From Azospirillum griseum (GTDB lineage: Bacteria; Pseudomonadota; Alphaproteobacteria; Azospirillales; Azospirillaceae), in the NCBI RefSeq assembly GCF_003966125.1, contig NZ_RXMA01000003.1, positions 219,495 to 243,494 on the forward strand: a DNA stretch of 24,000 nt, in the 5' to 3' direction. Positions 1,223 through 24,000 of the stretch are shown piece after piece (the first letter of the stretch is position 1; every line of letters begins with the position of its first letter). The translations under genes were made by a program, and so were the position numbers. The notes beneath the pieces are model-generated. The model had not been told where the DNA came from. It searched no databases and worked only from the letters and a program-made list of their open reading frames with translations.

Positions 1223-1237
1223 ACAATGTTATGTCCT

Positions 1238-1255: not shown

Positions 1256-1330
1256 TGAATTTCTGAGCCTGATGGCGGCGAAGGGCGGATCAAGAACGCC
1301 CGGCAGGAAAACCCCCCCTTGGAGGAAACG

Positions 1331-2635: not shown

Positions 2636-2665
2636 GGAATCCTCCCGCGCTGGTGCGCAAGCCTT

Positions 2666-2715: not shown

Positions 2716-2758
2716 CCGCCGTTCTCCGCGCGGGTCTGTGCAAACGGGAGTGTGAGTG

Positions 2759-3694: not shown

Positions 3695-3751
3695 TCCGAA
3701 GCCGCTCCAACACCCACCCCCCAGCCCGACGCCGACACGAGGCCGCCACAG

Positions 3752-4540: not shown

Positions 4541-4545
4541 GCGCC

Positions 4546-5838: not shown

Positions 5839-5873
5839 GGAACAGATCTGCGATGGGGTGGTGACACGAACGA

Positions 5874-5897
5874 GGACCGGGCCACGTCGCCCGGTCC
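5874..5897 (+). other. GC-rich stem-loop between otnK and the hydrolase gene (GGACCGGGC-cacgtc-GCCCGGTCC)
   Basis: Read directly: a 9-bp perfect stem with a 6-nt loop and no U-tract. It could be a weak terminator, an attenuator or an mRNA-stabilising hairpin. Confidence 0.4.
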
Positions 5898-5918
5898 CGA
5901 CCGGGGAGTGAAACGACG

Positions 5919-7016
5919 ATGACTTTGCGCTATCGCATCCGGCGCGCCGCCCTGGCGGCGTTGACCGTGGGGGCCGTGCTGATCGGCGGTGGTCCGAGCG
6001 CTCCGGCGGCACCGGCCAACTACCCAACGCCGCAGGAGGGCGATTGGATCGCCCGCGATTTCCGTTTCAAGAACGGCGCGGTGATGCCGGAATTGCGGCT
6101 GCATTACACCACCCTCGGCAACCCCACGGGCGATGTGGTGGTGGTTCTGCACGGCACGGCGGGCAGCGGCAAGGCGATGCTGACCCCGGCCTTTGCCGGG
6201 GAGCTGTTCGGCCCCGGTCAACCGCTGGACGCGGCCACCCATCGCATCATCCTGCCCGACGCGCTGGGGGCGGGGGCGTCGGCCAAACCGTCCGACGGTT
6301 TGCGCATGGGCTTTCCCGAATACACTTATGACGACATGGTCGCCGCCCAACACCGGCTGTTGACCGAAGGGCTGGGCATCACCCATGTTCGGCTGCTGCT
6401 GGGTCATTCGATGGGCGGGATGCATGTCTGGCTGTGGGGAGCCACCCACCCCGGCTTTGCCGACCTGCTGGTGCCGATGGCGGCGCAGCCGACGGCGATG
6501 TCGGGCCGCAATTGGATGATGCGCCGCCTGCTGATCGAAAGCATCCGCCGCGATCCCGATTGGAACGGCGGCAACTACACCAACCAACCCAAGGGCTTGG
6601 CCTTCGCCAACCTCGTGTTCGGCACGGCGACCAACGGCGGCACCCTGGCGCTGCAAGCCGCCGCCCCCACCCGCGAGGCCGCCGACCGGCTGCTGGAGCG
6701 CCGCTTGGCCGCGCCGTTCGAGGGCGACGCCAACGACGCGCTGTATCAGTGGAACGCGTCGCGCGATTACGACCCGTCGTCGGCGCTGGGGCGGATCACC
6801 GATCCGGTTCTGGCGATCAACGCCGCCGATGACGAGCGCAACCCGCCCGAAACTGGGGTGATGGCGCGCGCGATGGCGGCGGTGGCGCGGGGCAGCCTGC
6901 ATGTGATCCCGGCCAGCGCCGAAACACTGGGCCACAGCACAACCGCCTTTGCCCGCTTCTGGAAAGACCGTCTGGCCGAGGCGTTGGCGGCAACCCCGCG
7001 CGCGCCCCGGCCCTGA
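5919..7016 (+). CDS. Exported alpha/beta-fold hydrolase (MetX/homoserine-O-acetyltransferase-like fold)
   Basis: The 365-aa product starts at ATG 5919, preceded by GGGGAG at 5903..5908. It has a signal-peptide-like N-terminus (RIRRAALAALTVGAVLIGGGPSAPAAPA), the nucleophile elbow GHSMGG, and candidate acid/His residues (AADDERN, TLGHST). Confidence 0.75.
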   Translation: MTLRYRIRRAALAALTVGAVLIGGGPSAPAAPANYPTPQEGDWIARDFRFKNGAVMPELRLHYTTLGNPTGDVVVVLHGTAGSGKAMLTPAFAGELFGPGQPLDAATHRIILPDALGAGASAKPSDGLRMGFPEYTYDDMVAAQHRLLTEGLGITHVRLLLGHSMGGMHVWLWGATHPGFADLLVPMAAQPTAMSGRNWMMRRLLIESIRRDPDWNGGNYTNQPKGLAFANLVFGTATNGGTLALQAAAPTREAADRLLERRLAAPFEGDANDALYQWNASRDYDPSSALGRITDPVLAINAADDERNPPETGVMARAMAAVARGSLHVIPASAETLGHSTTAFARFWKDRLAEALAATPRAPRP

Positions 7017-8431: not shown

Positions 8432-9424
8432 TCAGGCCCCGCTTTTGCGGAACACCGACGGCGTCACCCCCCGCCGCGCCTTGAAGGCGCGGACAAAGTG
8501 GGAGGAGTCGCAGAATCCGGCGGCGGCGGCGATGTCGGTCACGGATTGGTCGGTGGTTGTCAGCAAAAACTCGGCGTGTTCCAGCCGGATGATCTTGTAG
8601 GCGTCGGTCGGCGTGAGGCCGAGCGCGCTGTGGGTGTGGCGTTCCAACTGGCGGCGGGCCACGCCCAGGCGGCGCGACAGGTCGGCGATGGACAGCGGGG
8701 CGTCGATGTTCTGCTGCATCAGCAGCAACGCCTTTTTCACGATCTCGTCGGTGGTGGTCAGGTCGAGCGGGATGCCCGGCTGGGGTTTTTCGGCGCGCAG
8801 GGCGTCGTCGATGATCATGATGTGCAGGCTCTTGCGCGCCTGCGCCCGCCCGACATGCTTTTCCACCAGATGGGCGGCGAGATGGGCGGAGCTGGTTCCG
8901 CCCGAACAGGTCAGCCGGTCGCGGTCCACGATGAAAATCTGGTCGGACACCGGGGTCAGGCCGCTGAACTGCTCCAGAAAATCGGCGTGGTGGAACCAAC
9001 TGACGCAACAGCGGTAGCCGTCCATCAACCCCGCCCGTTGCAGGATGAAGGCCCCGGTGCACACCCCCACCAGCGGGACCCGCGCGGCGGCCGCGCGGTG
9101 CAGATAGGCGGTGTGTTCGGGGCTGAGAGCCGGGGTTTCGTCGATCAGGCCGCCGACAACGACGATGTAGGTGAAGTGGGCCGGGTCGCCCAGCCGTTCG
9201 GTCGGCTGCACCAGAACGCCACTGCTCGACGCCACCGGGCGCATGGTGTCGGACAGCACCGTCCACTCGCACAGGATCGGGCGGCTGCGGTCGCCCTCGT
9301 CGGCGGCCAGCCGCAGCACGTCCACGAAATTGGCGAAGGCCCCCAACGTGAAGCGGTGGGCCAGGATGAAACCGACCGACAGGCGCGGCGTGCCGCGCCC
9401 CGGCGGGCGGCTGTGGCGGTCCAT
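8432..9424 (-). CDS. GlxA-family (GATase1/DJ-1-like + AraC HTH) transcriptional regulator, SouR/GbdR-like
   Basis: The product is 330 aa from ATG 9424, preceded by GGAGAG with a 7-nt spacer. It has a DJ-1/PfpI-like domain (VGVCTGAFILQRAGLMDG) and a C-terminal AraC HTH (DIAAAAGFCDSSHFVRAFKARRGVTPSVFRK). It is divergent from the sox operon. The track's 414-aa version (start 9676) would overlap soxB. Confidence 0.85.
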   Translation of the reverse strand: MDRHSRPPGRGTPRLSVGFILAHRFTLGAFANFVDVLRLAADEGDRSRPILCEWTVLSDTMRPVASSSGVLVQPTERLGDPAHFTYIVVVGGLIDETPALSPEHTAYLHRAAAARVPLVGVCTGAFILQRAGLMDGYRCCVSWFHHADFLEQFSGLTPVSDQIFIVDRDRLTCSGGTSSAHLAAHLVEKHVGRAQARKSLHIMIIDDALRAEKPQPGIPLDLTTTDEIVKKALLLMQQNIDAPLSIADLSRRLGVARRQLERHTHSALGLTPTDAYKIIRLEHAEFLLTTTDQSVTDIAAAAGFCDSSHFVRAFKARRGVTPSVFRKSGA

Positions 9425-9566: not shown

Positions 9567-10820
9567 ATGACCCGCTTCTCCTTCTCCTCCCTTCTCAGCA
9601 ACGCCCTGACCGGCAACCGGAACTGGCAACCCCAATGGCCCGACGCCGAACCGAAGGCCGAGTATGACGTGATCATCGTCGGGGCGGGCGGCCATGGGCT
9701 GGGGGCCGCCTATTATCTGGCCAAGGAGCACGGCGTCACCAACGTGGCCGTGATCGAAAAGGGGTGGCTGGGCGGCGGCAACACCGGGCGCAACACCACC
9801 ATCATCCGCTCCAACTACCTCTACGACGAAAGCGCGATGCTGTACGAGCACGCGATGAAGCTGTGGGAGGGGTTGAGCCAGGATCTGAACTACAACGTCA
9901 TGTTCTCCCAGCGCGGCGTTCTGATGCTGGCGCACACGGTCCATGACGTGCAGAGCTTCAAGCGGCACATCCACGCCAACAGGCTGAACGGCATCGACAA
10001 CGAATGGCTGACGCCGGAGCAGGCCAAGGCCTTCTGCCCGCCGCTGAACACCGATCCCAACGCGCGTTACCCGGTGATGGGGGCGGCGCTGCAACGGCGC
10101 GGCGGCGTGGCCCGGCACGACGCGGTGGCCTGGGGCTACGCCCGTGGGGCGGCGGCGCGCGGGGTGGACATCATCCAGAATTGCCCGGTGACGGCGATCG
10201 GTCGCGACGCGGCGGGGCGGGTGACGGGGGTGCAGACGCCGCGCGGCTTCATCAAGGCCAAAAAGGTCGCCGTGTCGGCGGCGGGCAGCACGTCGGTGGT
10301 GATGGACAGTGCCGGCGTGCGTTTGCCGCTGGAAAGCTACCCGTTGCAGGCGCTGGTGTCGGAACCGATCAAGCCGGTGTTCCCCTGCGTGGCGATGTCC
10401 AACACCGTCCACGCCTACATCAGCCAATCCGACAAGGGCGAGTTGGTGATCGGGTCGGGGACCGATCAATACACCTCCTACAGCCAGCGCGGCGGGCTGC
10501 CGCTGATCGAACACACCATCGCCGCCATCTGCGAGGTGTTCCCGATCTTCACCCGCATGCGGATGCTGCGCAAATGGGCGGGCATCGTGGACGTGACGCC
10601 CGACCGCTCGCCGATCATCGGCCTGACCCCGGTTCCGGGGCTGTATGTGAATTGCGGCTGGGGCACCGGCGGCTTCAAGGCGACGCCGGGATCGGCGCAC
10701 GTCTTCGCCCACACCATCGCCCGCAACGAACCCCACCCGATCAACGCGCCCTTCACGTTGGAGCGCTTCACCACCGGCCGCCTGATCGACGAGGCCGCCG
10801 CCGCCGCCGTGGCGCATTGA
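9567..10820 (+). CDS. soxB: Sarcosine oxidase subunit beta
   Basis: The 417-aa product has the typical SoxB N-terminus (...[38 protein letters not shown]) with an FAD Rossmann motif. It is followed by soxD, soxA and soxG in the canonical order. Confidence 0.95.
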
Positions 10821-10831
10821 GGAGTGACGAG

Positions 10832-11194
10832 ATGCTGTTGATCCGCTGCCCTTATTGCGAGGCCGAACGCCCGGAGGTCGAGTTCGTTTACGCCGGGGAG
10901 GCGCACATCACCCGCCCGACCAACCCGTCGGCGCTGTCGGACGAGGCGTGGAAGGACCATTTGTTCACCCGCACCAACCCGCGCGGGCGGCATTTCGAAC
11001 GCTGGCGGCATCTGCACGGCTGCGGGCGCTTCTTCAACGCGGTGCGTGACACCGTCAGCGACCGGTTCGCCCTGACCTACAAGGCCGGTCTGCCCCGCCC
11101 GACCGACGCGGAGATCGAGGCGGCCAACGCCCCGGCGGCCCAAACCCCGGCAACGAACGCCCCGGCGGCCCAGAACCAGGAGGCGCGCTCATGA
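10832..11194 (+). CDS. soxD: Sarcosine oxidase subunit delta
   Basis: The 120-aa product is embedded in the track ORF 10004..11194. ATG 10832 follows GGAG (10821..10824). The sequence MLLIRCPYCEAERPEVEF...HLHGCGRFF is the SoxD Cys3His zinc motif. Its stop overlaps the soxA start (ATGA at 11191..11194). Confidence 0.9.
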   Translation: MLLIRCPYCEAERPEVEFVYAGEAHITRPTNPSALSDEAWKDHLFTRTNPRGRHFERWRHLHGCGRFFNAVRDTVSDRFALTYKAGLPRPTDAEIEAANAPAAQTPATNAPAAQNQEARS

Positions 11195-14190
11195 CCAGCT
11201 TCCGCATCCCCGGCAAGGGCCGCCTGACCGCCGCCGCGCCGGTTCATTTCACCTTCGACGGCCAACCGTTCCAGGGCGTGGCGGGCGACAGCCTGGCCTC
11301 GGCCCTGCTGGCCAACGGCGTCCATCTGGTCGGGCGCTCCTTCAAATACCACCGTCCGCGCGGCATCCTGTCCGCCGGGTCGGAGGAGCCGAACGCGCTG
11401 GTCAGCACCGACCGGGGCCAGGGCCGCTTCGAACCGAACACCCGCGCCACCATGCTGGAGCTGTATGACGGTTTGGCCGCGACCAGCCAAAACCGCTGGC
11501 CGTCTTTGCGGCGCGACGTTGGCGCGGTGAATGACGCGCTCTACATGCTGTTTTCCGCCGGTTTCTACTACAAGACCTTCATGTGGCCGAAAAGCTTCTG
11601 GACGAAGGTCTATGAGCCGTTCATCCGCAACGCCGCCGGTCTCGGCCCCGCCCCGGTGGCGGTCGATCCCGACGTGTACGCCAGCCGCTTCGCCCATTGC
11701 GATCTGCTGGTCGTCGGCGGCGGTCCGGCCGGTCTGGCCGCCGCGCTCGCCGCCGGGCGCAGCGGCGCGTCGGTGATCCTGTGCGACGAACAGGCCGAAT
11801 TGGGTGGCTCGCTGCTGTCGGAAACCGACGCGGGCATCGATGGCCGCAGCGGTTGGGGCTGGCTGGACGAGACGCGGGCGGCGCTGGCGGCCCTGCCCAA
11901 CGTCACGCTGCTGCCGCGCACCACCGCCATCGGCTATTACCATCAAAATTTCCTGGGGCTGTGCCAGCGCCTGACCGACCATCTGACCGTGGTGCCGGAC
12001 GGCGCGCCGCGCGAGCGTCTGTGGAAGGTGCGGGCCAAGCGCGTGGTGCTGGCGCAGGGGTCGATTGAAAAGCCGCTGGTCTTCGCCGGAAACGACCGTC
12101 CCGGCGTGATGCTGGCCGGGGCGGCGCGCGCCTATCTGAACCGCTACGGCGTGGCGGTGGGCCGCCGCGTCGCCATTGTCACCACCCATGACAGCGCGTG
12201 GCTGGCCGCCTTCGATCTGGCGCGGGCCGGGGTGGCGGTCGCCGCCATCGTCGACGCGCGCGGCACGGTTCCCGCCGGGCTGGTGGCGCGGGCCGAGGCG
12301 CTGCGCATCCCCACCCGGATCGGCTGGACGGTGACGGACACCGCCGGGCGGCTGCGGGTGGAGTCGGTGCGGATCAACCCGGTGGCGGCGGACGGCACGG
12401 TCGGGGCGGGGCAGACCCTTGCCTGCGACGCGCTGCTGATGTCGGGCGGCTGGACGCCCAGCGTGCATCTGTTTTCCCACACCAAGGGGTCGCTGCGCTG
12501 GCAGGAAGACCGCCAGATGTTCACGCCGGGCGAAACGGTGGAGGACGGTTGCCCGGTCGGGGCCTGCGCCGGTCGCTTCGGTCTGGCCGCCGCGCTGGAG
12601 GATGGGGCGGAGGCCGGGCGCGCGGCGGTGGCTGCGCTGGGCTTCACCGCCGAGGCGACGGCGCACCGGGTGACGGACGAAACGCCGCTGACCGGGACCA
12701 GCCTGCGCGAGCTGCCGACCGACCGCGACCCGTCGCGGATCAAGGCCTTCGTCGATTTCCAGAACGACGTCATGGCCAAGGACATCCGGCTGGCGGTGCG
12801 CGAGGGCTTCCAATCCATCGAGCACATCAAACGCTACACCACCACCGGGATGGCGACCGACCAGGGCAAGATTTCCAACATCAACGGTCTGGCCATCGCG
12901 GCGGACGCGTTGAAGCGCCCGGCCCCGGCGGTGGGGTTGACCACCTTCCGCCCGCCCTACACCCCGACCACCTTCGGGGCCTTCGCCGGCTACAACCGGG
13001 GCGACCTGTTCGAGGTGACGCGCAAGACGCCCATCGACGGTTGGGCGGAGGCGCAGGGCGCGGTGTTCGAACCGGTGTCGCTGTGGCGGCGCGCCTGGTA
13101 CTTCCCGCAGGCTGGCGAGGACATGCACGCGGCGGTCGCCCGCGAATGCGCGGCGGTGCGCTCCTCGCTGGGGATGTTCGACGCCTCGACGCTCGGCAAG
13201 ATCGAGATCGTCGGCCCGGACGCCGCCGAATTCATGAACCGCATGTACACCAACGCGTGGACCAAGCTGGCCCCCGGGCGCTGCCGCTACGGCCTGATGC
13301 TGGGCGAGGATGGCTTCATCCGCGACGACGGCGTGATCGGGCGGCTGGCCCACGACCGTTTCCACGTCACCACCACCACCGGCGGGGCCGCGCGCGTGCT
13401 GGCGATGATGGAAGACTATCTGCAAACCGAATGGCCGGATCTGAAGGTCTGGTTGACCTCCACCACCGAACAATGGGCGGTGATCGCGCTGCAAGGTCCC
13501 AACGCCCGCAAGCTGATCGAACCGCTGGTCGAGGGCATCGATCTGGCCGACAGCGCCTTTCCGCACATGGCGGTGGCGGAAGGCCGGATCTGCGGGGTCC
13601 CGACCCGGCTGTTCCGCGTCTCCTTCACCGGCGAGCTGGGCTTTGAAATCAACGTTCCCGCCCGCCATGGCCGCGCGGTGTGGGAGGCGCTGCACGAGGC
13701 CGGGCAGCGGTTCGGCATCACCCCCTATGGCACGGAGACGATGCACGTCCTGCGCGCCGAAAAGGGCTACATCATCGTTGGGCAGGACACGGACGGCACC
13801 TTGACGCCGGACGACTCCGGGCTGGGCTGGGCCGTGGGCAAGACCAAGCCGGATTTCGTCGGCAAACGGTCGCTGACCCGCCCCGACATGCTGGTCCCCC
13901 ACCGCAAGCAGCTGGTCGGTCTGCTGACCGAGGATCCACAAACGGTGTTGGAGGAGGGGGCGCAAATCGTCCTCGACCCCAACCAGCCGCTGCCGATGAA
14001 GATGGTCGGTCACGTCACCTCGTCCTATTGGAGCGCCGCGCTGGGCCGGTCCATCGCCCTGGCGGTGGTCGAGGGCGGGCGGGCGCGGCAGGGCGAAACG
14101 GTGCATGTGCCGATGCCCGACCGGGTCCACCGCGCGACCGTGACCGGCACCGTCTTTTTCGATCCCGACAACACCCGTTTGAGCGCGTAG
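11191..14190 (+). CDS. soxA: Sarcosine oxidase subunit alpha
   Basis: The 999-aa product has the dinucleotide-binding motif DLLVVGGGPAGLAAALAA and a C-terminal GcvT-like folate-binding domain (GMFDASTLGKIEIVGPDAAEFMNRMYTN). Confidence 0.95.
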   Translation: MTSFRIPGKGRLTAAAPVHFTFDGQPFQGVAGDSLASALLANGVHLVGRSFKYHRPRGILSAGSEEPNALVSTDRGQGRFEPNTRATMLELYDGLAATSQNRWPSLRRDVGAVNDALYMLFSAGFYYKTFMWPKSFWTKVYEPFIRNAAGLGPAPVAVDPDVYASRFAHCDLLVVGGGPAGLAAALAAGRSGASVILCDEQAELGGSLLSETDAGIDGRSGWGWLDETRAALAALPNVTLLPRTTAIGYYHQNFLGLCQRLTDHLTVVPDGAPRERLWKVRAKRVVLAQGSIEKPLVFAGNDRPGVMLAGAARAYLNRYGVAVGRRVAIVTTHDSAWLAAFDLARAGVAVAAIVDARGTVPAGLVARAEALRIPTRIGWTVTDTAGRLRVESVRINPVAADGTVGAGQTLACDALLMSGGWTPSVHLFSHTKGSLRWQEDRQMFTPGETVEDGCPVGACAGRFGLAAALEDGAEAGRAAVAALGFTAEATAHRVTDETPLTGTSLRELPTDRDPSRIKAFVDFQNDVMAKDIRLAVREGFQSIEHIKRYTTTGMATDQGKISNINGLAIAADALKRPAPAVGLTTFRPPYTPTTFGAFAGYNRGDLFEVTRKTPIDGWAEAQGAVFEPVSLWRRAWYFPQAGEDMHAAVARECAAVRSSLGMFDASTLGKIEIVGPDAAEFMNRMYTNAWTKLAPGRCRYGLMLGEDGFIRDDGVIGRLAHDRFHVTTTTGGAARVLAMMEDYLQTEWPDLKVWLTSTTEQWAVIALQGPNARKLIEPLVEGIDLADSAFPHMAVAEGRICGVPTRLFRVSFTGELGFEINVPARHGRAVWEALHEAGQRFGITPYGTETMHVLRAEKGYIIVGQDTDGTLTPDDSGLGWAVGKTKPDFVGKRSLTRPDMLVPHRKQLVGLLTEDPQTVLEEGAQIVLDPNQPLPMKMVGHVTSSYWSAALGRSIALAVVEGGRARQGETVHVPMPDRVHRATVTGTVFFDPDNTRLSA

Positions 14191-14197
14191 GAGGCCC

Positions 14198-14737
14198 ATG
14201 GTGCCGCACGCCCCCGCTTCCCTTCTGGTGCGCAACGGCGCGCTCTCCGTCCGTCTCGCGGACGAGGTCGCCCGCTTCAGCCTGCGTCTGGCCCCCGCCG
14301 ACACCGGCCAGGCCGCCGCCGCCTTCGGCGGGCCGTTGCCCGCCCGCATCGGCGCGATGAGCCAAAGCAACGGGCGCACCGCCCTGCAACTTGGCCCCGA
14401 CGAGTGGCAGATCCTCGCCCCGCCGGGGGACGTCGACGCCCTGTCCGCCGCCTTTGCCGCCCTGCCGGTCCCGCACAGCCTGGTGGACATCAGCCACCGC
14501 GAGGTCGGGATTGTGGTGGAGGGGGCGGCGGCCACGCTTGCCCTGCGCTCGGCCATCGCCTTTGATCTGGAGGCGATGGCGGTGGGAACCGGCTGCCGCA
14601 CCCTGTTCGACAAGGCGCAAATCCTGCTGATCCGCGAGGCCGCCGACCGTTTCCGCATCGAGGTCTGGCGTTCCTTCGCCGATCACGTCTGGGGTCTGCT
14701 GCGCGCGGCCAGCCGCGAAATCGATCTGGATCTGTGA
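14198..14737 (+). CDS. soxG: Sarcosine oxidase subunit gamma
   Basis: The 179-aa ORF lies immediately after soxA, with AGGAGG at 14188..14193. The call rests mainly on its size and its position in soxBDAG. Confidence 0.8.
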
Positions 14738-14783
14738 CCCCACCGGCCTGTGCCGGACGCCATCCAACCCGCGAGGATTCCGC

Positions 14784-16058
<1,275 letters not shown>

Positions 16059-16089
16059 CCGTCACCGCCCTCCTCCTTCTCCTTCCCTG

Positions 16090-16983
16090 ATGCGAGAACC
16101 CGCCATGCGCCCCACCTCCAACCGGTTTGTCATGACGGTGAGCTGCGCCAGCCGTCCCGGCATCATCTCCGCCCTGTCCACGCTGCTGGCGAACCGGGGG
16201 TGCGACATCGTCGAAAGCGCGCAGTTCGTCGATCACGAGCACGCGCGTTTTTTCCTGCGCATGGCGTTCGACGCCCCCCTTGATCTGGGTGGGGCGGGGC
16301 TGGAGGGGGAAACGGTCCTGTTGCGCGAGATGGAACCGATCCGCGAGCGCTTCGCCATGGATTTGTCCATCCGCGACGTGCGGCGGCGCTCGAAGATCCT
16401 CATCATGGTGTCGAAGATCGGCCATTGTCTGAACGATCTGCTGTACCGCCACAGCATCGGGGCGTTGCCCGCCGACATCGTCGGCGTGGTGTCCAACCAC
16501 GACAGTTTCCGCAAGCTGGTGGAGCGCCACGACCTGCCTTTCCATCACCTGCCGATGTCCCCCGAGGTGAAGGCGGAGCAGGAGGCGGCGCTGATGGGCA
16601 TCGTCGAGGACGGCGGGGTGGAGCTGGTGGTGCTCGCCCGCTACATGCAGGTGCTGTCACCGGCCCTGTGCCAGCGGATGGCGGGGAAGGTCATCAACAT
16701 CCATCACAGCTTCCTGCCCAGCTTCAAGGGGGCCAAGCCCTACCACCAGGCGCACAAGCGCGGGGTGAAGCTGATCGGGGCGACGGCCCACTACGTCACC
16801 GACGACCTCGACGAAGGCCCGATCATCGAGCAGGAGGTGTCCCGGGTCGATCACGCGATGTCACCGGACGATCTGGTGGCGATTGGCCGCGACGTGGAAA
16901 GCGTGGTGCTGGCCCGCGCGGTGCGCCTGCACATCGAATCGCGGGTGATGCTGCACGATGAAAAAACCGTCGTTTTCCGGTGA
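16090..16983 (+). CDS. purU: Formyltetrahydrofolate deformylase
   Basis: The product has an N-terminal ACT domain (FVMTVSCASRPGIISALSTLLANRGCDIVES) and a formyltransferase core (INIHHSFLPSFKGAKPY, HYVTDDLDEGPII). The start is ambiguous: ATG 16090 has no SD, and ATG 16105 has a weak GAGAA. Confidence 0.9.
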   Translation: MREPAMRPTSNRFVMTVSCASRPGIISALSTLLANRGCDIVESAQFVDHEHARFFLRMAFDAPLDLGGAGLEGETVLLREMEPIRERFAMDLSIRDVRRRSKILIMVSKIGHCLNDLLYRHSIGALPADIVGVVSNHDSFRKLVERHDLPFHHLPMSPEVKAEQEAALMGIVEDGGVELVVLARYMQVLSPALCQRMAGKVINIHHSFLPSFKGAKPYHQAHKRGVKLIGATAHYVTDDLDEGPIIEQEVSRVDHAMSPDDLVAIGRDVESVVLARAVRLHIESRVMLHDEKTVVFR

Positions 16984-17003
16984 CGGCCACCGGGTGTTCT
17001 CAT

Positions 17004-17076
17004 CCCCGCTTCATCACAGCATCACCATATGATGAATTTCATCAAAGCAAGCGGGGAAATTGTCATCAAAAGATGA
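17004..17076. promoter_or_regulatory. Nested palindromes built from TCATCA/TGATGA hexamers in an AT-rich island
   Basis: Read directly. CCCCGCTT (17004..17011) pairs with AAGCGGGG (17049..17056) and encloses TGATGAA-T-TTCATCA (17030..17044). A further TCATCA lies at 17011..17016, and TCATC-AAAA-GATGA lies at 17063..17076. This could be the terminator structure of the sox-glyA-purU operon, protein-binding sites, or both. Confidence 0.4.
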
Positions 17077-17161
17077 TTTCAAAACACCCCTTACGCTGTG
17101 TGCGCCGCGTCATGGGAACCAGCGGCACCCTTGAAGATTATAAACAATAACTGTTTTGCTT

Positions 17162-17174
17162 CGCGATAATCGCG
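17162..17174. promoter_or_regulatory. 13-bp palindrome CGCGAT-A-ATCGCG overlapping a putative -10 (GATAAT 17165..17170; possible -35 TAAACA 17141..17146)
   Basis: Read directly. It lies about 107 nt upstream of the aldehyde dehydrogenase start. The CGATAATCG core resembles, from memory, IclR-family PcaR/PcaU-type operators of aromatic-catabolic promoters. Confidence 0.35.
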
Positions 17175-17280
17175 CCCATCCCCAGTTCGGCACGCCGCTT
17201 GCTCTGTAAGGGGCAAAGGCGGGGTGCGGATCACACAGCTCCTCCATCCCGCCCGACGACGCGAAAGGGAGGATGATGCT

Positions 17281-18759
17281 GTGACGGTTGGCGAGGGAGA
17301 TTCCTGCTTTCTAAACGCGGCGGTGTGGGCCGACCGTGTGTTTGACGGCGCGTGGCGGGTGCCGCAGGGCGGCGCGCGCGAGGTGCGCGAACCGGCGACC
17401 GGCGGCGTCCTGACCCGCGTCGGCATGGCCAACCCGCAGGATGTTGCGGCGGCGGCGCGGGCGGCGGCGGCGGCGCAGCCGGGCTGGGCGGCGCTGCCCG
17501 CGCGCGACCGTGCGGCGGTGTTCCGGCGGGCGGCGGACGCGCTGGAGCGCAACGCTGATGAACTGGTCCGGACCATCGTCCGCGAAACCGGCTCCATCCC
17601 GGGCAAGGGCCAGCACGAGGTGCGGGAGGCCATCACCATCCTGCACCGCGCGGCGGCGATGCCGTTGGAGGCGACCGGCCAGATTCTGCCCGCCGCCCCC
17701 GGTCATCTCAGCCTGGCGCGGCGGGTTCCGCACGGGGTGGTCGGCGTCATCTCCCCCTTCAACTTTCCGCTGATCCTGTCGCTGCGCGCGGTGGCTCCGG
17801 CGCTGGCCGTCGGCAACGCGGTGGTGCTGAAACCCGACCCGCGCACGCCGGTGACGGGCGGCTTCATCATCGCCCGCGCTTTTGAGGAGGCGGGCTTGCC
17901 GCCGGGCGTGCTGCACGTCCTGCCCGGCGGGGCCGACGCGGGCGAGGCGCTGGTGACGGATCCCAACATCCGCATGATCGGTTTCACCGGATCGACCAAC
18001 GTCGGGCGGCGCATCGGCGAATTGGCCGGACGCCATCTGAAGAAAACCGCGCTGGAGCTTGGCGGCAAAAGCGCGCTCATCATCCTGGACGACGCCGATC
18101 TCGATCTGGCCGCGCGCAACGTCGCCTGGGGGGCCTATCTGCACCAGGGCCAGATCTGCATGGCGTCGGGCCGCATCCTGGTGCAGGAGCGCATCGCCCC
18201 GGCGCTGGTCGCGCGCCTGGTGGAAAAGGCCAGCCGCCTGCCGGTCGGCGATCCGGCGACCGGGACCGTGGCGCTCGGCCCGCTGATCGACGAGACCCAG
18301 CGTGACCGCGTTCACGCCATCGTGCAGGACACCGTGGCGGCGGGTGCCCGCCTGGAATCGGGCGGAACCTTCGAAGGGCTGTTCTACCGCCCGACCGTGC
18401 TGTCGGGCGTGCGCCCCGGCATGCGCGCCTTTGAGGAGGAGGTGTTCGGCCCGGTCGCCACCATCGCCACCTTTGCCAACGACGACGAGGCGGTGGCGCT
18501 GGCCAACCGCACCGACTACGGCCTGTCGGGTGCCGTGATCTCCCCCAACCTGGCCCGCGCCATGGCGATTGCGGACCGGCTGAACACCGGCATGGTCCAT
18601 GTCAACGACCAGACCGTGGCCGACGAGTGCGTGAACCCGTTTGCCGGACGCGGGGCGTCGGGCAATGGCGGCGCGGTGGGCGGCCCCGCCGACTGGGAGC
18701 AGTTCACGCAATGGCGCTGGACCACGGTCAAGCCCACCCCGCCCGCCTACCCGTTCTGA
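17281..18759 (+). CDS. NAD(P)+-dependent aldehyde dehydrogenase, benzaldehyde/aryl-aldehyde dehydrogenase-like
   Basis: The product is 492 aa from GTG 17281, preceded by AAGGGAGGA (17264..17272). The track start at GTG 17224 has no RBS. It has the ALDH catalytic motifs ALELGGKSA (Glu) and GQICMASGR (Cys), and its overall layout resembles XylC-type enzymes. Confidence 0.85.
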   Translation: MTVGEGDSCFLNAAVWADRVFDGAWRVPQGGAREVREPATGGVLTRVGMANPQDVAAAARAAAAAQPGWAALPARDRAAVFRRAADALERNADELVRTIVRETGSIPGKGQHEVREAITILHRAAAMPLEATGQILPAAPGHLSLARRVPHGVVGVISPFNFPLILSLRAVAPALAVGNAVVLKPDPRTPVTGGFIIARAFEEAGLPPGVLHVLPGGADAGEALVTDPNIRMIGFTGSTNVGRRIGELAGRHLKKTALELGGKSALIILDDADLDLAARNVAWGAYLHQGQICMASGRILVQERIAPALVARLVEKASRLPVGDPATGTVALGPLIDETQRDRVHAIVQDTVAAGARLESGGTFEGLFYRPTVLSGVRPGMRAFEEEVFGPVATIATFANDDEAVALANRTDYGLSGAVISPNLARAMAIADRLNTGMVHVNDQTVADECVNPFAGRGASGNGGAVGGPADWEQFTQWRWTTVKPTPPAYPF

Positions 18760-18771
18760 GGAGGACCCGGC

Positions 18772-19890
18772 ATGCGCATTCACGCCGCCGTTGCCCGCGT
18801 GCCCAAGGGGCCGCTGTCCATCGAAACCCTGGAGTTGGAAGACCCGCGCGACGACGAGGTGCTGGTCCGCGTCGTGGCGACCGGGGTGTGCCACACCGAT
18901 CTTGTCGTGCGCGACGGCATGCTGCCCACACCGCTGCCGGTGGTGCTGGGGCATGAAGGGGCGGGCGTGGTCGAACGGGTCGGACGGTCCGTCACCAAGG
19001 TCAAGCCGGGCGATCCGGTGGTGATGACCTTCAATTCCTGCGGCACCTGCCCAAGCTGCGCCGACCACGCCCACAGCTATTGCCACGAGTTCTTTCCCCG
19101 CAACTTCTTCGCCGCCCGCCCGGACGGCACGACCGCGCTGTCGCGGGAGGGGGAGCGGATCCACAGCCACTTTTTCGGCCAATCCTCCTTCGCCAGCCAC
19201 GCGCTGTGCCGGGAGCAGAACGTCGTGAAGGTCCCCGCCGACGCGCCGCTGGCGTTGCTGGGGCCGCTGGCCTGCGGCGTGCAGACGGGGGCCGGGGCGG
19301 TGATGAACGCGCTGGAGGTCACGGCGGGTCAATCCATCGCCGTGTTCGGCGCGGGATCGGTCGGGCTGTCGGCGGTGATGGCCGCCCGCGTGGTCGGGGC
19401 CACCACCATCATCGCGGTGGACATCAACGACGCCCGTCTGGATTTCGCGCGCGAGGTGGGGGCCACCCATTGTTTCAACCCACAGGCGGGCAGCGTCGTC
19501 GATCCGATCCTGGCCCTGACCGGCAGCGGGCTGAATCACGCGTTGGACACCACCGGGCGGGCGGCGGTCATCCGCGACGCGATGGCGTGCCTGGCCCCGC
19601 GCGGGCGCTGCGGCGTGCTGGGCGCGTCGCCGATGGGCAGCGAAATCACCCTGGATCAGGTGCATTTCATGAGCGGCGGGCGGCGTCTGATCGGCATCGT
19701 CGAGGGCGACGCCAATTCCGACACCTTCATCCCCACCCTGATCGCGTTGAACCGGCAGGGGCGCTTTCCCTTCGACCGGATGATCCGCGCCTACCCCTTC
19801 TCCGCCATCGACGAGGCGATCCATGACATGGAGGCCGGTCGCACGATCAAGCCGGTCCTGATGATGGAGGCCGCCCCCCCGTCCGCCTGA
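18772..19890 (+). CDS. Zn-dependent aryl-alcohol (benzyl alcohol-type) dehydrogenase
   Basis: The 372-aa product has catalytic Zn ligands GVCHTDL and GHEGAGVVE, a structural Zn cluster CGTCPSCADHAHSYC, and the NAD motif VFGAGSVGLS. It starts 12 nt after the ALDH stop, preceded by GAGGAGGA. Confidence 0.85.
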   Translation: MRIHAAVARVPKGPLSIETLELEDPRDDEVLVRVVATGVCHTDLVVRDGMLPTPLPVVLGHEGAGVVERVGRSVTKVKPGDPVVMTFNSCGTCPSCADHAHSYCHEFFPRNFFAARPDGTTALSREGERIHSHFFGQSSFASHALCREQNVVKVPADAPLALLGPLACGVQTGAGAVMNALEVTAGQSIAVFGAGSVGLSAVMAARVVGATTIIAVDINDARLDFAREVGATHCFNPQAGSVVDPILALTGSGLNHALDTTGRAAVIRDAMACLAPRGRCGVLGASPMGSEITLDQVHFMSGGRRLIGIVEGDANSDTFIPTLIALNRQGRFPFDRMIRAYPFSAIDEAIHDMEAGRTIKPVLMMEAAPPSA

Positions 19891-19988
19891 CCGCAACATC
19901 CGCGTTTTTTGGAGACCAACGAACAAGAAAGGACGCCACCCCAAGGGCCGTCCGCATCCGAAAACCCACACACAGGGAAACGCACCGC

Positions 19989-21662
19989 ATGAAACGGTAT
20001 TTTCTGGCCGGTACGGCGTTGGTCGCCGTCGCCGTTGGCCCCGTGCTGCCCGCGCAGGCCGAAAGCTTCACCTTCGACGACAGCGATTTCAAGATCACCT
20101 GGGACAACACGGTCAAATACAGCACGTCCTATCGGTTGACCGATCCGAAATCGTCGATGCTGACCGACACCAACCTGGACGACGGCAACCGGAATTTCCA
20201 GGCGGGCTTCACCTCCAACCGCGCCGACATCCTGTCGGAACTGACGGTGGGCACCCGCGATTATGGGTTCCGCGCCAGCGGGGCGGCGTGGTTCGACACG
20301 CTCTATCTGCGTGACAACGACAACAATTCCCCGGCCACCGCCAATTCGACCAGCGTGTCCAACAGCCGGTTCACCGGGGCGACCCGCACCGTGCATGGCC
20401 GCAACGTCGAACTGATGGACGCCTTTGCCTATGGCAACGGCACGGTCGGCGACACCCGCGTGTCCGGGCGGTTGGGGCGGCATTCGCTGATCTATGGCGA
20501 GAGTCTGTTCTTCGGGGCCAACGGTGTCGCCGCCGCCCAGCAGCCCATCGACCTCATCAAGCTGTTGAGCGTCCCCAGCACCCCGTTCAAGGAGGTTCTG
20601 CTGCCGGTCTGGCAGGCGTCGGGCAATGTCCAGCTACGCGAAAACCTGTCCGTGGGCGGCTATTACCAACTGCAATGGCGCAAAACGCGCCTGCCGGCGG
20701 CGGGCAGCGCCCTCAGCTCGGCGGATTTCGTCGGGGATGGGGCGGAGCGCATCGTCGTTGGCGGCCCGGTGCTGCCCGGCGGTGGTCCGGCGGCCTTCTG
20801 GCGCGGCCAGGACATCAAGGCGCGCGACAGCGGCCAGTTCGGCGCGCAGGTGCGTTACACCCCGGACGACACCGATTATGAGCTGGGGTTTTACTTCGCC
20901 CAGTATCACGACAAGACGCCGCAGCTCTATTTCGTGCCCAACGCCCGGCCGACGCTGGGGCAGCTTCAATCCGGCAACATCGGCGAACTGCGCCACGTCT
21001 ATGCCGAAAACGTCCGCACGGTCGGGGCCAGCGTCAGCACGGTGGTGGGACGCGCCAACGTGGCGGGCGAGGTGTCCTACCGCTGGAACGCGCCGCTGGT
21101 CAGCGATCCACAAACCGCGCTGCCGGGCGTGCTGGCCGACAACAAGGCCCACCCGCTCTACGCCGTGGGGCGGACGCTGCACGCGCAGGCGTCGGCCATC
21201 TACGCCTTCACCCCGAACAGCTTGTGGGACGGGGCGTCGATCGCCGCTGAAATCGCCTGGAACACGCGGGTCGGCATCGACAAGAACCCGCTGGCGCTCG
21301 ATCCCAACAGCACCAAATCGGCGCTGGGCGTCCGCGCCGTCTTCACCCCGACCTATTTCCAGATCGCCAACGGGCTGGACGTGAACATCCCGATCGGCAT
21401 CGGTTTCAACCCCTATGGCCGCTCGTCCGCCGTCGGCAATTTCAACGGCGGGGCGTCGCGCGGGGGCGACATCAGCATCGGGGCTGACTTCACGTACCAA
21501 TCGACGTGGAATTTCGGCATCAACGCCACCCACTATTTCGGTCCGGCGGGTGTGCTGCTGACCGCCGCCGACCCAACCGCCACACCGGTTCAGAAGCTGA
21601 CCTTCAAACAGACGATGGCGGGGCGCGATTTCATCGGCGCCTACGTGAAGCGTTCCTTCTGA
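19989..21662 (+). CDS. DUF1302-family protein, a predicted large outer-membrane beta-barrel
   Basis: The 557-aa product has a signal peptide (MKRYFLAGTALVAVAVGPVLPAQA/E) and the family-typical N-terminal block FKITWDNTVKYSTSYRL...NLDDGNRNFQAGF...SGAAWFD. It shows alternating beta-strand-like composition and a C-terminal aromatic residue (…YVKRSF), as in BAM substrates. Confidence 0.75.
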   Translation: MKRYFLAGTALVAVAVGPVLPAQAESFTFDDSDFKITWDNTVKYSTSYRLTDPKSSMLTDTNLDDGNRNFQAGFTSNRADILSELTVGTRDYGFRASGAAWFDTLYLRDNDNNSPATANSTSVSNSRFTGATRTVHGRNVELMDAFAYGNGTVGDTRVSGRLGRHSLIYGESLFFGANGVAAAQQPIDLIKLLSVPSTPFKEVLLPVWQASGNVQLRENLSVGGYYQLQWRKTRLPAAGSALSSADFVGDGAERIVVGGPVLPGGGPAAFWRGQDIKARDSGQFGAQVRYTPDDTDYELGFYFAQYHDKTPQLYFVPNARPTLGQLQSGNIGELRHVYAENVRTVGASVSTVVGRANVAGEVSYRWNAPLVSDPQTALPGVLADNKAHPLYAVGRTLHAQASAIYAFTPNSLWDGASIAAEIAWNTRVGIDKNPLALDPNSTKSALGVRAVFTPTYFQIANGLDVNIPIGIGFNPYGRSSAVGNFNGGASRGGDISIGADFTYQSTWNFGINATHYFGPAGVLLTAADPTATPVQKLTFKQTMAGRDFIGAYVKRSF

Positions 21663-21688
21663 ACACCGAATTTCCAGGAGTGTGTTCC

Positions 21689-23047
21689 ATGAAAGTGACC
21701 ATGATTCTGGCCGCCGCCGGTGCGCTGCTGTGCGCTCACAGCGGGACCGCCTTCGCCCTTGTCACCGCCGAGGAGGCGGCGAAGCTGAGCACCAGCCTGA
21801 CCCCGATGGGGGCCGAACGGGCGGGCAACAAGGAGGGGACGATTCCCCGCTGGGAGGGGGGGTACACCAAGCCGTTGCCCGGCTACACCCCCGGTGGCGT
21901 CCGCCCCGATCCCTTCGCCGACGACAAGCCGACCCTGACCATCACCGGCAAGAACGCCGCCCAACACGCGGAAAAATTGAGCGACGGCACCCGCGCGCTG
22001 CTGGCCAAACACCCCGGCCTGCGGCTGGACGTGTACCCCACCCGGCGCAGCGCGGCGGCCCCGCAATGGGTCTATGACAACACCGCCAAGAACGCGACCC
22101 GCGCCAAGCTGACCAACGGCGGCCACGCGGTGGAGGGGGCCTATGGCGGCATTCCCTTTCCCATCCCGACCAACGGCTATGAGGCGATCTGGAACTACCG
22201 CCTGAGCTGGCTGGGCGAGAGCGTGGAATATTCGCTGGGCACCTGGGTGGTGACGCCGGACGGCAACAAGGTCCAGGCGTCGGCGGGCGACGAGTATCTG
22301 CAATACCCCTACAACTACAAGGACGGTTCGCTGGACAGCTACAAGGGGATTTTCCAATACGGCAAATTCATCCAGAGCCGCCCCAGCTCGCGCGCCGGTG
22401 AAGCGATCCTGGTGCATGAATCCTCCAGCGCCGAGAAGGCCCGCGCCATCTGGCAGTATCTGGTCGGTCAGCGCCGGGTGCGCCGCGCCCCGTCGGTCGC
22501 CTACGACACCCCCGATTTCGTCACCTCGGGCGTGGGCTTCTTCGACGAGGCGTTCATGATGTTCGGCCCGGTCGATCACCATGATTTCAAGCTGGTCGGC
22601 AAGAAGGAGATGTATGTCCCCTACAACAACAACCGTGCGGCGGCCGCCGATCCCGACAAGCTGCTCGGCCCGCAGCATCTGAATCCCGATCTGGTCCGCT
22701 GGGAGCTGCACCGCGTGTGGGTGGTGGACGCGACCCTGTCCGACGGCAAGCGCCACGTCGTGCCCAAGCGCCGCTATTACCTGGATGAGGACAGCTGGCA
22801 GATCCTGATGTTCGACGGGTGGGACGCGCAGGGGCAGTTGTGGCGGCACAACTACACCCTGACCCTGCTGGCCCCCGATCTGCCCGCCCTGGTCGGGACG
22901 GTGATGTGGGGTGGCTATGACCTGCGCACCGGGTCCTATTATCTGAACGCGGCGTCGAACGGTCTGCCGACCCAGTACAAGGCGGTCCCGCGCCGCCCGG
23001 CGGACGCCTTCAGCCCCGACGATCTGGCCGGACGCAGCGTCCAGTGA
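21689..23047 (+). CDS. DUF1329-family protein (LolA-like / outer-membrane lipoprotein-sorting-like fold), periplasmic
   Basis: The product is 452 aa from ATG 21689, preceded by AGGAG at 21676..21680. The track's 513-aa version (start 21506) overlaps the preceding gene. It has a signal peptide with an AFA/LV cleavage site and no lipobox. The family-typical motif LTPMGAERAGNKEGTIPRWEGGY is present. Confidence 0.75.
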   Translation: MKVTMILAAAGALLCAHSGTAFALVTAEEAAKLSTSLTPMGAERAGNKEGTIPRWEGGYTKPLPGYTPGGVRPDPFADDKPTLTITGKNAAQHAEKLSDGTRALLAKHPGLRLDVYPTRRSAAAPQWVYDNTAKNATRAKLTNGGHAVEGAYGGIPFPIPTNGYEAIWNYRLSWLGESVEYSLGTWVVTPDGNKVQASAGDEYLQYPYNYKDGSLDSYKGIFQYGKFIQSRPSSRAGEAILVHESSSAEKARAIWQYLVGQRRVRRAPSVAYDTPDFVTSGVGFFDEAFMMFGPVDHHDFKLVGKKEMYVPYNNNRAAAADPDKLLGPQHLNPDLVRWELHRVWVVDATLSDGKRHVVPKRRYYLDEDSWQILMFDGWDAQGQLWRHNYTLTLLAPDLPALVGTVMWGGYDLRTGSYYLNAASNGLPTQYKAVPRRPADAFSPDDLAGRSVQ

Positions 23048-23084
23048 TCGGCCACCCCCTCGCATCTGTTCAGGACGAGCGCGC

Positions 23085-24000
23085 ATGACAACCCGCATTT
23101 CCTTTGGGCGTGGCCCGGTGGCGGCGGTCGCCGTCGCCGGGGCGCTGGCTGCGCTGGCGGTGCCGATGACTGGAACCGTCCGCGCCGAAACCGCGAAAGC
23201 CGAGACCGCCAAAACCGAGGCTGGCGCGTTTCCGGTGCTGACGCAACCGGCGCTGACCACGCCCAAGGCGGCGGGGGCGGCCATGCTGGGCTTGGCCCGC
23301 GCCGGTCAGCGGCTGGTCGCCGTCGGCGAACGCGGCATCATCCTGCTGTCGGATGACCGGGGCGAACGCTGGCGGCAGGCCCGCGTTCCGGTCAGCGTCA
23401 GCCTGACCGCCGTCCGCTTCGTGACGGAGCGGACGGGCTGGGCCGTCGGTCATTTCGGCGTGGTGCTGCGCACCGACGACGGCGGGGAAAGCTGGACGAA
23501 GCAGTTGGACGGGGTGGCGGCGGCGCGGCTGGTTGCGCAAACCGCCGCCGATCTGGTCCGTCTGGGCGCGCCCGACGCGGAGGGCCTGCGCGAGACCTCC
23601 CTGCGACTGGTCGAGGAGGGGCCGGACAAGCCCTTCCTCGACCTCTTTTTCGCCAACGAGCGCGAGGGGATCATCGTCGGAGCCTACAATCTCGCCTTCC
23701 GCACCCAGGATGGCGGACGAAGCTGGACGCCGTGGATGCACCGGCTCGACAACCCCAAGGGGCTGCATCTTTACGGAATCGCCAAAGGGCAGGGACCGGC
23801 GGCGGGCGACCTTTACATCGTGGGGGAGCAGGGGGTGCTGCTGCGCTCCACCGATGGGGGGGAGCGGTTCACCGCCTTGCCCTCTCCCTACAAGGGCAGT
23901 TGGTTCGGCGCGCTGACCACGGCGGACGGCGGCCTGTTGGCCTATGGCCTGCGCGGCAGCCTCTACCGCTCCACCGACCGGGGCGAAAGCTGGACCGCCA
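23085..24000 (+). CDS. BNR/Asp-box beta-propeller protein, Ycf48/photosystem-II-assembly-factor-like. It is exported, and it is partial because it continues past the window end.
   Basis: This ORF is not in the supplied track because it has no stop in the window; I translated it by hand from ATG 23085. It has a signal peptide (…AALAVPMTGTVRA/E). There are five SxDxGxxW-type Asp-boxes: SDDRGERW (23349..23372), TDDGGESW (23472..23495), TQDGGRSW (23703..23726), STDGGERF (23847..23870) and STDRGESW (23970..23993). Confidence 0.7.
   Translation, partial: MTTRISFGRGPVAAVAVAGALAALAVPMTGTVRAETAKAETAKTEAGAFPVLTQPALTTPKAAGAAMLGLARAGQRLVAVGERGIILLSDDRGERWRQARVPVSVSLTAVRFVTERTGWAVGHFGVVLRTDDGGESWTKQLDGVAAARLVAQTAADLVRLGAPDAEGLRETSLRLVEEGPDKPFLDLFFANEREGIIVGAYNLAFRTQDGGRSWTPWMHRLDNPKGLHLYGIAKGQGPAAGDLYIVGEQGVLLRSTDGGERFTALPSPYKGSWFGALTTADGGLLAYGLRGSLYRSTDRGESWTA

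Follow-up and report, generated by a model that had tools for sequence, protein, structure and literature searches.

A predicted sigma-54 operon of Azospirillum griseum joins aromatic-type dehydrogenase genes to an AmeABCD-type four-component RND transporter cassette

Here we report the analysis of three adjacent genes at the right end of a 24,000-nucleotide stretch of the Azospirillum griseum genome (contig NZ_RXMA01000003.1, positions 219,495 to 243,494; hereafter, the window). They encode a DUF1302 protein, a DUF1329 protein, and a Ycf48-like beta-propeller, and their sequences identify them as the probable outer-membrane and periplasmic part of a four-component transporter of the AmeABCD type, of which this would be a typical member. 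The trio also forms the distal part of a predicted six-gene sigma-54 operon that starts at about position 17188. We assign a probability of about 0.5 to the reading that the complete system is a proton-driven conduit through which hydrophobic substrates, aromatic or terpenoid, would pass, export being slightly favored over uptake. The family to which it belongs is already described and widespread, and is still mechanistically unsolved.

A first-pass annotation of the window had described three consecutive co-directional genes for exported proteins, and signal peptides are present in all three products at those positions of the plus strand (Table 1); the family assignments proposed there also hold in searches with Pfam profiles. 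The first gene scores 403.4 bits against DUF1302 (PF06980; cutoff 23.2), covering profile positions 3-541 of 541. Its product, which had been expected to be a barrel of about 550 residues, starts with MKRYFLAGTALVAVAVGPVLPAQA followed by E, a signal peptide cleaved at AQA/E, and ends in the anticipated C-terminal phenylalanine (...VKRSF). The AlphaFold2 model, built from an alignment of 34 homologs, is beta-strand almost throughout (pLDDT 85, pTM 0.82). When this model was compared with the PDB by Foldseek, outer-membrane barrels made up 50 of the 50 matches listed, including OmpF/OmpK36-type porins, OccAB4, OccD3, and the alginate exporter AlgE, at TM-scores of just 0.35-0.45 (query-normalized). 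The finding of barrels only, at such low scores, indicates that the DUF1302 protein is modeled as an outer-membrane beta-barrel that lacks a close solved relative. According to a 2026 paper, DUF1302 is modeled as an 18-stranded barrel and an experimental structure is absent (PMC13499233).

The second gene, whose start was taken as the ATG at 21689 within a longer GTG-initiated open reading frame (ORF) from 21506, reaches 436.4 bits against DUF1329 (PF07044; cutoff 23.1), with an additional weak LolA_like match. Its signal peptide ends in a signal-peptidase-I site (...GTAFA/L), and the protein has no lipobox, because its sole cysteine has leucine at -1; both features had been noted in the first-pass annotation, together with the LolA-like character of the protein. 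Foldseek matches of the AlphaFold2 model (24 sequences, pLDDT 72) comprise LolA3 of Porphyromonas gingivalis (9tp6, E 6e-15, target-normalized TM 0.80) and the DUF1329 crystal structure 4z48 (E 3e-14), followed by 3bk5, 3buu, LolA, and RseB. The tie to 4z48 and LolA comes from fold comparison only, since sequence-only searches of all PDB chains with the DUF1302 and DUF1329 proteins, including a 24-sequence profile, returned zero matches. NCBIfam has no model for either family.

The third gene is truncated by the window end, and the sequence past 24000 was taken from the source contig, a 331-kb contig to which the DUF1302 protein was assigned by exact sequence match and which is identical to the window over 9989-24000 (window coordinate equals contig-locus coordinate plus 9988). 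On the contig, the propeller gene starts at the ATG at 23085, within a few bases of the start implied earlier, ends at window-equivalent 24293, and encodes 402 amino acids. The protein scores 67.6 bits against PSII_BNR (cutoff 27), with a BNR match in addition, contains five S/T-x-D-x-G-x-x-W/F Asp-boxes, carries a Cys-free signal peptide that ends VRA/E, and matches Ycf48-like PDB chains with E 6e-14. Against the Ycf48 equivalog of NCBIfam (PRK13684) it obtains 74.5 bits at a cutoff of 326, which makes it a Ycf48-like protein and not a Ycf48 ortholog, and the lipoprotein cysteine of cyanobacterial Ycf48 is absent.

A membrane permease gene had been expected just past 24000, and the next gene on the contig, in the same direction, indeed encodes an MMPL-type RND permease. 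Its hydropathy scan gives the RND pattern: an N-terminal hydrophobic segment and then two hydrophobic clusters, each of them preceded by a long hydrophilic stretch. The motif G(V/I)DYALY in transmembrane helix 10 (TM10) is invariant in 72 of 72 homologs, and the nearest solved relatives of the permease are HpnN and MmpL3-5 (E 1e-9 to 1e-4, over the C-terminal transmembrane bundle). No domain of the membrane fusion protein (MFP) or OEP/TolC families was found among the 15 called genes of the 21.7-kb locus, in line with the absence of such partners noted from the window.

To describe the conservation of the cassette, we ran a DUF1329 profile against a genome set with one representative for each species. 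At least 586 loci matched two peptide patterns alone; we kept the best 80 and scored co-occurrence by tblastn with the A. griseum proteins in the 63 loci flanked by 5 kb or more on each of the two sides. The order DUF1302-DUF1329-propeller-MMPL was found in 63 of 63 related loci, a figure that describes the clade plus spot checks and not the whole family, since the 80 kept loci are the closest relatives (56-65% identity). It includes four loci whose DUF1302 matches lay slightly below the 40% identity filter and were nevertheless found by tblastn. At least 8000 DUF1329 protein clusters were found. The same order is kept in four copies located on plasmids or chromids (40-74% identity), so that the co-occurrence anticipated for related genomes extends to these replicons. 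In Azospirillum sp. B510, the 682-kb plasmid pAB510c carries the same eight-gene block with a DUF1329 protein of 74% identity; in the PGAP annotation its genes are named benzaldehyde dehydrogenase, NAD(P)-dependent alcohol dehydrogenase, DUF1302, DUF1329, YCF48-related protein, MMPL, sigma-54 regulator, and serine hydrolase, and the genes that flank it are unrelated to the A. griseum flanks. Among the copies in the 40-48% identity range, that on a 504-kb plasmid of Pseudomonas putida has carboxylase-type neighbor genes, that on Azoarcus pAZKH has a LuxR-type regulator and a fatty-acid-CoA ligase, and that on P. aeruginosa pPAMH19 has a sterol-desaturase-family protein and a short-chain dehydrogenase/reductase (SDR). 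Order kept amid such differing neighbors points to the four-gene cassette as the invariant module, around which enzymes and regulators are swapped. Several paralogous cassettes per genome appear common: DUF1329 paralogs lie on at least three replicons of Azospirillum sp. B510 (74%, 45%, and 43% identity), and seven matching places were seen on one plasmid of Massilia putida.

The predicted operon begins about 2.8 kb upstream of position 19989, with an aldehyde dehydrogenase gene and a zinc-dependent alcohol dehydrogenase gene that the first-pass annotation had not linked to the trio. The nearest structures of the aldehyde dehydrogenase are benzaldehyde, 4-hydroxybenzaldehyde, salicylaldehyde, and vanillin dehydrogenases (E about 1e-102), and the alcohol dehydrogenase matches 5tnx (E 5e-123) and, as the nearest named structure, benzyl alcohol dehydrogenase 1f8f (E 3e-107); both enzymes lack a signal peptide. 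The six genes are separated by gaps of 13, 98, 26, 37, and 14 nt. In the 98-nt gap, between the alcohol dehydrogenase and DUF1302 genes, no sigma-54 or sigma-70 site, terminator, or stable hairpin was found, and its RNA fold z-score is -0.28; terminator-like matches within the coding regions occur at chance level (9 vs 7.7 expected).

Just one sigma-54 site with at most one mismatch exists in the locus, and it lies 5' of the aldehyde dehydrogenase gene, about 78 nt before the start codon and inside an intergenic gap of 297 nt. When the intergenic regions of A. griseum and B510 are compared, this -24/-12 element (TTCGGCACGnCGCTTGCT) is the best-conserved block and the rest has diverged. A match of at least 15/16 within 350 nt 5' of the first operon gene is present in 41 of 71 related loci, and in 1.1% of random windows. 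Inverted and direct repeats are located 110-190 nt upstream of the element, the DNA is AT-rich both at the repeats and between them and the element, and a GATTTCA-type motif recurs 5' of the B510 copy. We regard the repeats as putative activator-binding sites. Repeats, an AT-rich stretch, and a -24/-12 element make up the customary layout of a XylR/DmpR-dependent promoter. The corresponding regulator would be the activator encoded beyond the permease gene, which matches DmpR/CapR (6iy8, E 6.5e-132) and the phenol-sensor domains of PoxR and MopR; activator domains, -24/-12 promoter, and upstream repeats are thus all present in one locus.

Table 1. Features of the predicted operon and adjoining genes, in window coordinates (positions past 24000 are window-equivalents on the source contig)
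Feature	Coordinates	Strand	Description and basis
Putative upstream activator sites for a XylR/DmpR-type regulator	17010..17077	.	Repeated TTCATCA/TGATGAA (GAWTTTCA) motifs
Predicted sigma-54 (-24/-12) promoter, cGGCACgccgcTTGCT	17188..17203	+	One mismatch to TGGCAC-N5-TTGCW
Aldehyde dehydrogenase, aromatic-aldehyde type	17281..18759	+	492 aa, cytoplasmic, first operon gene; Pfam Aldedh
Zn-dependent alcohol dehydrogenase, benzyl-alcohol-dehydrogenase-like	18772..19890	+	372 aa, cytoplasmic; Pfam ADH_N, ADH_zinc_N
DUF1302 predicted outer-membrane beta-barrel, AmeA counterpart	19989..21662	+	557 aa; Pfam, signal peptide, AlphaFold2/Foldseek
DUF1329 predicted periplasmic LolA-like protein, AmeB counterpart	21689..23047	+	452 aa; Pfam, AlphaFold2/Foldseek, signal-peptidase-I site
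Ycf48-like BNR/Asp-box beta-propeller, AmeC counterpart	23085..24000, truncated by window end	+	Pfam PSII_BNR, BNR
MMPL-type RND permease, best NCBIfam match HAE3	24308-26710		800 aa, 14 nt after propeller gene; Pfam MMPL
XylR/DmpR-type sigma-54 activator	26734-28665	-	643 aa; XylR_N, V4R, Sigma54_activat (AAA+), HTH_8
Serine hydrolase, beta-lactamase fold	28884-30038 (contig locus 18896-20050)		Cytoplasmic; S-x-x-K motif, residue 68

The frame of this operon recurs across the clade with exchangeable parts. A XylR-type activator gene accompanies the cassette in 57 of the 63 loci, mostly in divergent orientation upstream, and a counterpart of the aldehyde dehydrogenase with 60-70% identity is present in 49. 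A 278-amino-acid SDR lies between the aldehyde dehydrogenase and DUF1302 genes in 52 loci, and the zinc alcohol dehydrogenase was detected in eight. In most beta- and gammaproteobacterial relatives the SDR fills the slot of the Azospirillum zinc alcohol dehydrogenase (about 7.3-8.3 kb, locus coordinates), and the activator gene is divergent upstream, in contrast to its convergent downstream position in A. griseum. The SDR and the zinc alcohol dehydrogenase represent a non-orthologous replacement of the alcohol-oxidizing step within a conserved operon frame. The gene of a serine hydrolase, whose best match is a weak one to the methyl acetate hydrolase AcmB, adjoins the activator gene in both Azospirillum loci (B510 locus 16162-17322) and was found in only one of the 63 other related loci; this is a hint that in Azospirillum the substrate may enter as an ester. 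A gene for a methyl-accepting chemotaxis protein follows the cassette region in A. griseum (contig locus 20113-21525) and on the plasmid of P. putida YC-AE1 (14364-16478), and an association of the cassette with a chemotaxis gene in Azoarcus sp. BH72 was reported by Suvorova and Gelfand.

The first-pass annotation had treated the cluster as a conserved envelope system with no established mechanism, proposed that it forms a trans-envelope conduit distinct from classical tripartite pumps, and cited a P. putida fitness phenotype on hydrophobic esters and alcohols. The lack of an established mechanism stands, and the conduit idea is supported; neither the cassette nor the idea is new, since the former has been described as AmeABCD, as a cofit unit, as a member of XylR-type regulons, and in published AlphaFold complexes, and the hypothesis itself has been published. 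AmeABCD of Castellaniella defragrans 65Phen is a cassette of the same type and was named a 'tetrapartite RND transporter' (Puentes-Cala and Harder 2018, PMC6394551). The Ame proteins are induced on alpha-phellandrene, strains with ameB::Tn5 or an ameABCD deletion grow poorly when non-functionalized monoterpenes are the only source of carbon, and the deletion lowers limonene tolerance even with acetate and slightly raises Nile Red accumulation; the study put forward a tetrapartite exporter, together with a new HAE3 sublineage in which these partners are always present (PMC6394551). Cofitness of the four genes in Shewanella, Kangiella, and Pseudomonas was reported by Price et al., who proposed 'export of a cell wall component'. 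Thompson et al. observed that P. putida needs all four genes on Tween 20 and butyl stearate and not on free fatty acids, and floated an esterase; the phenotype cited earlier is thus real and concerns fatty esters, not alcohols. In a later AlphaFold study, from researchers who used the same P. putida fitness data, the proteins were interpreted as a transport system in which DUF1329 binds the barrel, or the propeller and the RND protein (PMC10866462), and AlphaFold-Multimer gave an ipTM of 0.84 for DUF1302-DUF1329 in the 2026 study (PMC13499233). According to Suvorova and Gelfand, who suggested a role in solvent stress, the four genes belong to the regulons of AphR (XylR/DmpR-type), AphS, and AphT. 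A DUF1329/YCF48-related/MMPL cluster is strongly expressed in an anaerobic benzene degrader. Beyond these papers, our literature search found no newer mechanistic, structural, or biochemical work on the cassette.

Compared by families and order alone, the A. griseum cassette shares with AmeABCD the same four families in the same order and the absence of MFP and TolC partners. In AmeABCD these are a DUF1302 outer-membrane protein, a periplasmic DUF1329 protein of the LolA superfamily, a Ycf48-like protein of COG4447, and an RND protein assigned to HAE3. The ame genes adjoin geoA and geoC, and both cassettes sit amid genes for the oxidation of hydrophobic alcohols and aldehydes. The two differ in the propeller, which at 402 amino acids is longer here than in AmeABCD (316) and bears a segment rich in Ala, Glu, Thr, and Lys at the N terminus and a Pro/Ser-rich tail at the C terminus, and in their surroundings, as the flanking enzymes here are of aromatic type and the predicted regulator is a XylR/DmpR-type sigma-54 activator. 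The same four cofit families are found in P. putida (PP_0765/PP_0766 plus PP_2018/PP_2019) and in Shewanella amazonensis (Sama_1588-1591). The set is divided between two loci in P. putida and P. stutzeri (Price et al.; Thompson et al.), with the DUF1302/DUF1329 pair under a LuxR-type regulator, whereas in A. griseum it is contiguous and of the sigma-54/XylR type.

In the mechanism that we favor, an alcohol, aldehyde, or ester of hydrophobic aromatic or terpenoid character would activate the XylR/DmpR-type regulator, the sigma-54 promoter would fire, and the dehydrogenase genes and the four transporter genes would be co-transcribed from it. The RND protein, driven by protons and partnered by the propeller, would exchange hydrophobic cargo with the LolA-like protein, which would shuttle or bridge to the periplasmic mouth of the barrel and dock there, and the barrel would release the cargo outside the cell. 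Such release would keep the load of the membrane from becoming toxic during consumption of the substrate by the cytoplasmic dehydrogenases. We infer the protein contacts, the substrate class, and the transport direction in this scheme. Outward transport is favored because of the AmeABCD tolerance data and because characterized RND proteins work outward; to our knowledge, this holds for all characterized bacterial RND proteins.

A number of observations weigh against this scheme. Outer-membrane proteins that are co-transcribed with catabolic enzymes under the control of a substrate-sensing activator are usually uptake channels, as are XylN and TodX. The best NCBIfam match of the permease is HAE3 (TIGR00921), at 140 bits and below the cutoff of 352. 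The substrate class is read only from the nearest characterized relatives of the two dehydrogenases (E about 1e-102 to 1e-123). The P. putida phenotype on esters and not on free acids fits uptake better than detoxification. Accumulation of Nile Red rose just slightly in the AmeABCD study (PMC6394551), and the phenotypes in Shewanella amazonensis and P. stutzeri were pleiotropic (Price et al.).

Transport in the opposite direction is the strongest alternative and a serious rival, which we rate as less likely than export. The barrel would admit a bulky hydrophobic substrate, the LolA-like protein would carry it, and the propeller-RND pair would insert it into the inner membrane, from which it would reach the cytoplasmic dehydrogenases, a route that applies the NPC2-to-NPC1 logic of eukaryotic RND relatives to bacterial nutrient acquisition. 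The operon shared with dehydrogenases that lack signal peptides under a XylR-type activator, here and in at least 49 of the 63 related loci, speaks for such a role, as do the chemoreceptor genes that adjoin the cassette here and on the P. putida plasmid; yet we know of no bacterial RND-superfamily protein that works inward, and small aromatic alcohols need no help in crossing membranes. Growth phenotypes can be cited on both sides. Mutants of P. putida in the four genes fail on Tween 20 and butyl stearate and grow on laurate and myristate, the ame mutants grow poorly on monoterpenes as sole carbon source, and deletion of a DUF1329 gene impairs growth of Delftia on phenanthrene, as reported through a citation in PMC13101534, whereas the ameABCD deletion strain is more sensitive to high limonene despite acetate and accumulates more Nile Red. 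On balance, an RND-dependent uptake machine that supplies the catabolic enzymes of the cytoplasm with bulky hydrophobic alcohols or esters seems doubtful to us. If real, it would be the first inward-working bacterial RND system and a prokaryotic counterpart of the NPC2-to-NPC1 lipid hand-off, and would explain why the clade conserves dehydrogenase co-transcription under a substrate-sensing activator.

Export of an endogenous envelope component or lipid, which would remodel the surface for contact with, or tolerance of, hydrophobic substrates by a hopanoid-HpnN or Lol-like logic, appears improbable for this locus. The pleiotropic phenotypes of the cofit genes in Shewanella amazonensis and P. 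stutzeri, from which 'export of a cell wall component' was proposed, agree with this idea, as do the lipid transporters HpnN and MmpL3 as nearest solved RND relatives, the LolA-like fold of DUF1329, and the presence of DUF1302 and DUF1329 proteins in nanopod and outer-membrane-vesicle proteomes of Delftia (PMC3110197), a localization that also fits the favored scheme. The cassette of this clade, however, is wired to a xenobiotic-sensing activator and catabolic enzymes and not to lipid-synthesis genes, which makes envelope-lipid export less likely here; paralogous cassettes with different catabolic neighbors suggest substrate-specific and not housekeeping roles, and no gene for biosynthesis of a cargo is present in the locus. 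The idea that DUF1302 and DUF1329 form an outer-membrane esterase hydrolyzing hydrophobic esters, raised from the ester-specific fitness defects of P. putida, was rejected on fold grounds and is very improbable, as the folds modeled for the two, a porin-like barrel and a LolA-like carrier, are non-enzymatic, family-model searches gave no hydrolase match for either, the AlphaFold follow-up reinterpreted the pair as transport proteins (PMC10866462), and a separate serine hydrolase with an S-x-x-K motif is encoded in this locus.

The proposed hydrophobic conduit has partial parallels among known systems. The nearest solved permease relatives, HpnN (hopanoid) and MmpL3 (trehalose monomycolate), share the TM10 Asp-Tyr, although the match is weak and partial; HpnN is described, through a citation in PMC6394551, as working without dedicated periplasmic or outer-membrane partners, whereas the present cassette always has three. 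The Lol pathway (LolCDE, LolA, LolB) follows a like logic, with extraction from the inner membrane, a periplasmic carrier of LolA fold, and acceptance at the outer membrane, but it is energized by an ABC protein and not by RND, its acceptor LolB is a lipoprotein in place of a large barrel, and its cargo is a lipoprotein where that of the present system is presumably a small hydrophobic molecule. Classical HAE1 pumps (AcrAB-TolC, TtgGHI) share the proton-driven RND superfamily and the link to tolerance of hydrophobic compounds, and differ in RND subfamily and in their MFP and TolC partners, which are absent here. The TOL upper operon (xylUWCMABN) resembles the A. griseum operon in XylR-family sigma-54 control, benzyl alcohol and benzaldehyde dehydrogenases, and an outer-membrane channel, and differs in having the single FadL-type channel XylN in place of a four-protein RND system, and a monooxygenase that is absent here. 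The Are-type aryl-ester pathway of Acinetobacter (areCBA, AreR) combines an esterase with benzyl alcohol and benzaldehyde dehydrogenases under a XylR-type sigma-54 regulator. To this pathway the resemblance is in gene content only, with an aldehyde dehydrogenase gene followed by an alcohol dehydrogenase gene, an S-x-x-K serine hydrolase nearby, and a sigma-54 regulator of XylR type.

The region has a GC content of 0.65-0.71 and abundant long shadow ORFs on both strands. Third-position GC is 0.86-0.90 in the five plus-strand genes from the aldehyde dehydrogenase to the propeller (Table 1) and 0.60-0.74 in antisense and alternative ORFs; by these values the long antisense ORFs (up to 886 amino acids; for example minus strand 17311-19971, and others in 19791-23768) are GC-rich shadows, and they were rejected as genes. 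Further to the left, window positions 9567-16983 hold a heterotetrameric sarcosine oxidase cluster (soxB, soxD, soxA, soxG) followed by genes of serine hydroxymethyltransferase and formyltetrahydrofolate deformylase (purU), with a divergent DJ-1/PfpI-AraC-type regulator gene beside it at about 8432-9424 on the minus strand. By their predicted functions these genes make up a coherent sarcosine and one-carbon catabolic unit, which ends 297 nt before the operon. Positions of about 110-5838 encode a LacI-family regulator, a major facilitator superfamily sugar transporter, an NAD_binding_2/11 dehydrogenase, an AP_endonuc_2 isomerase-like protein, and an SBD_N/NBD_C kinase, and a class II aldolase-fold gene lies immediately left of the window; we take this region to resemble a four-carbon acid-sugar (threonate/erythronate-type) utilization cluster. 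The kinase gene is a continuous ORF of 433 amino acids at 4537-5838 in the window. At window 5525-5544 another assembly has a run of N (5844-5978), with a difference of about 115 nt, and the kinase is split there into calls of 326 and 79 amino acids; a pseudogene reading was rejected, the split being a scaffold-gap artifact of assembly.

The four-protein system is very common in Proteobacteria, where the cassette occurs in islands for the catabolism of terpenes, aromatics, and esters, and possibly of benzene. What the A. griseum locus adds is a confirmed fourth gene, a predicted six-gene operon of the sigma-54/XylR type with conserved dehydrogenase partners, and a route to the cargo: as the cassette of this clade appears firmly tied to a dehydrogenase pair and to a sigma-54 promoter with a XylR/DmpR-type sensor, the inducer spectrum of the promoter could identify what the transporter carries. 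Such knowledge would bear on solvent tolerance, on bioremediation, and on the engineering of strains that consume or produce hydrophobic chemicals.

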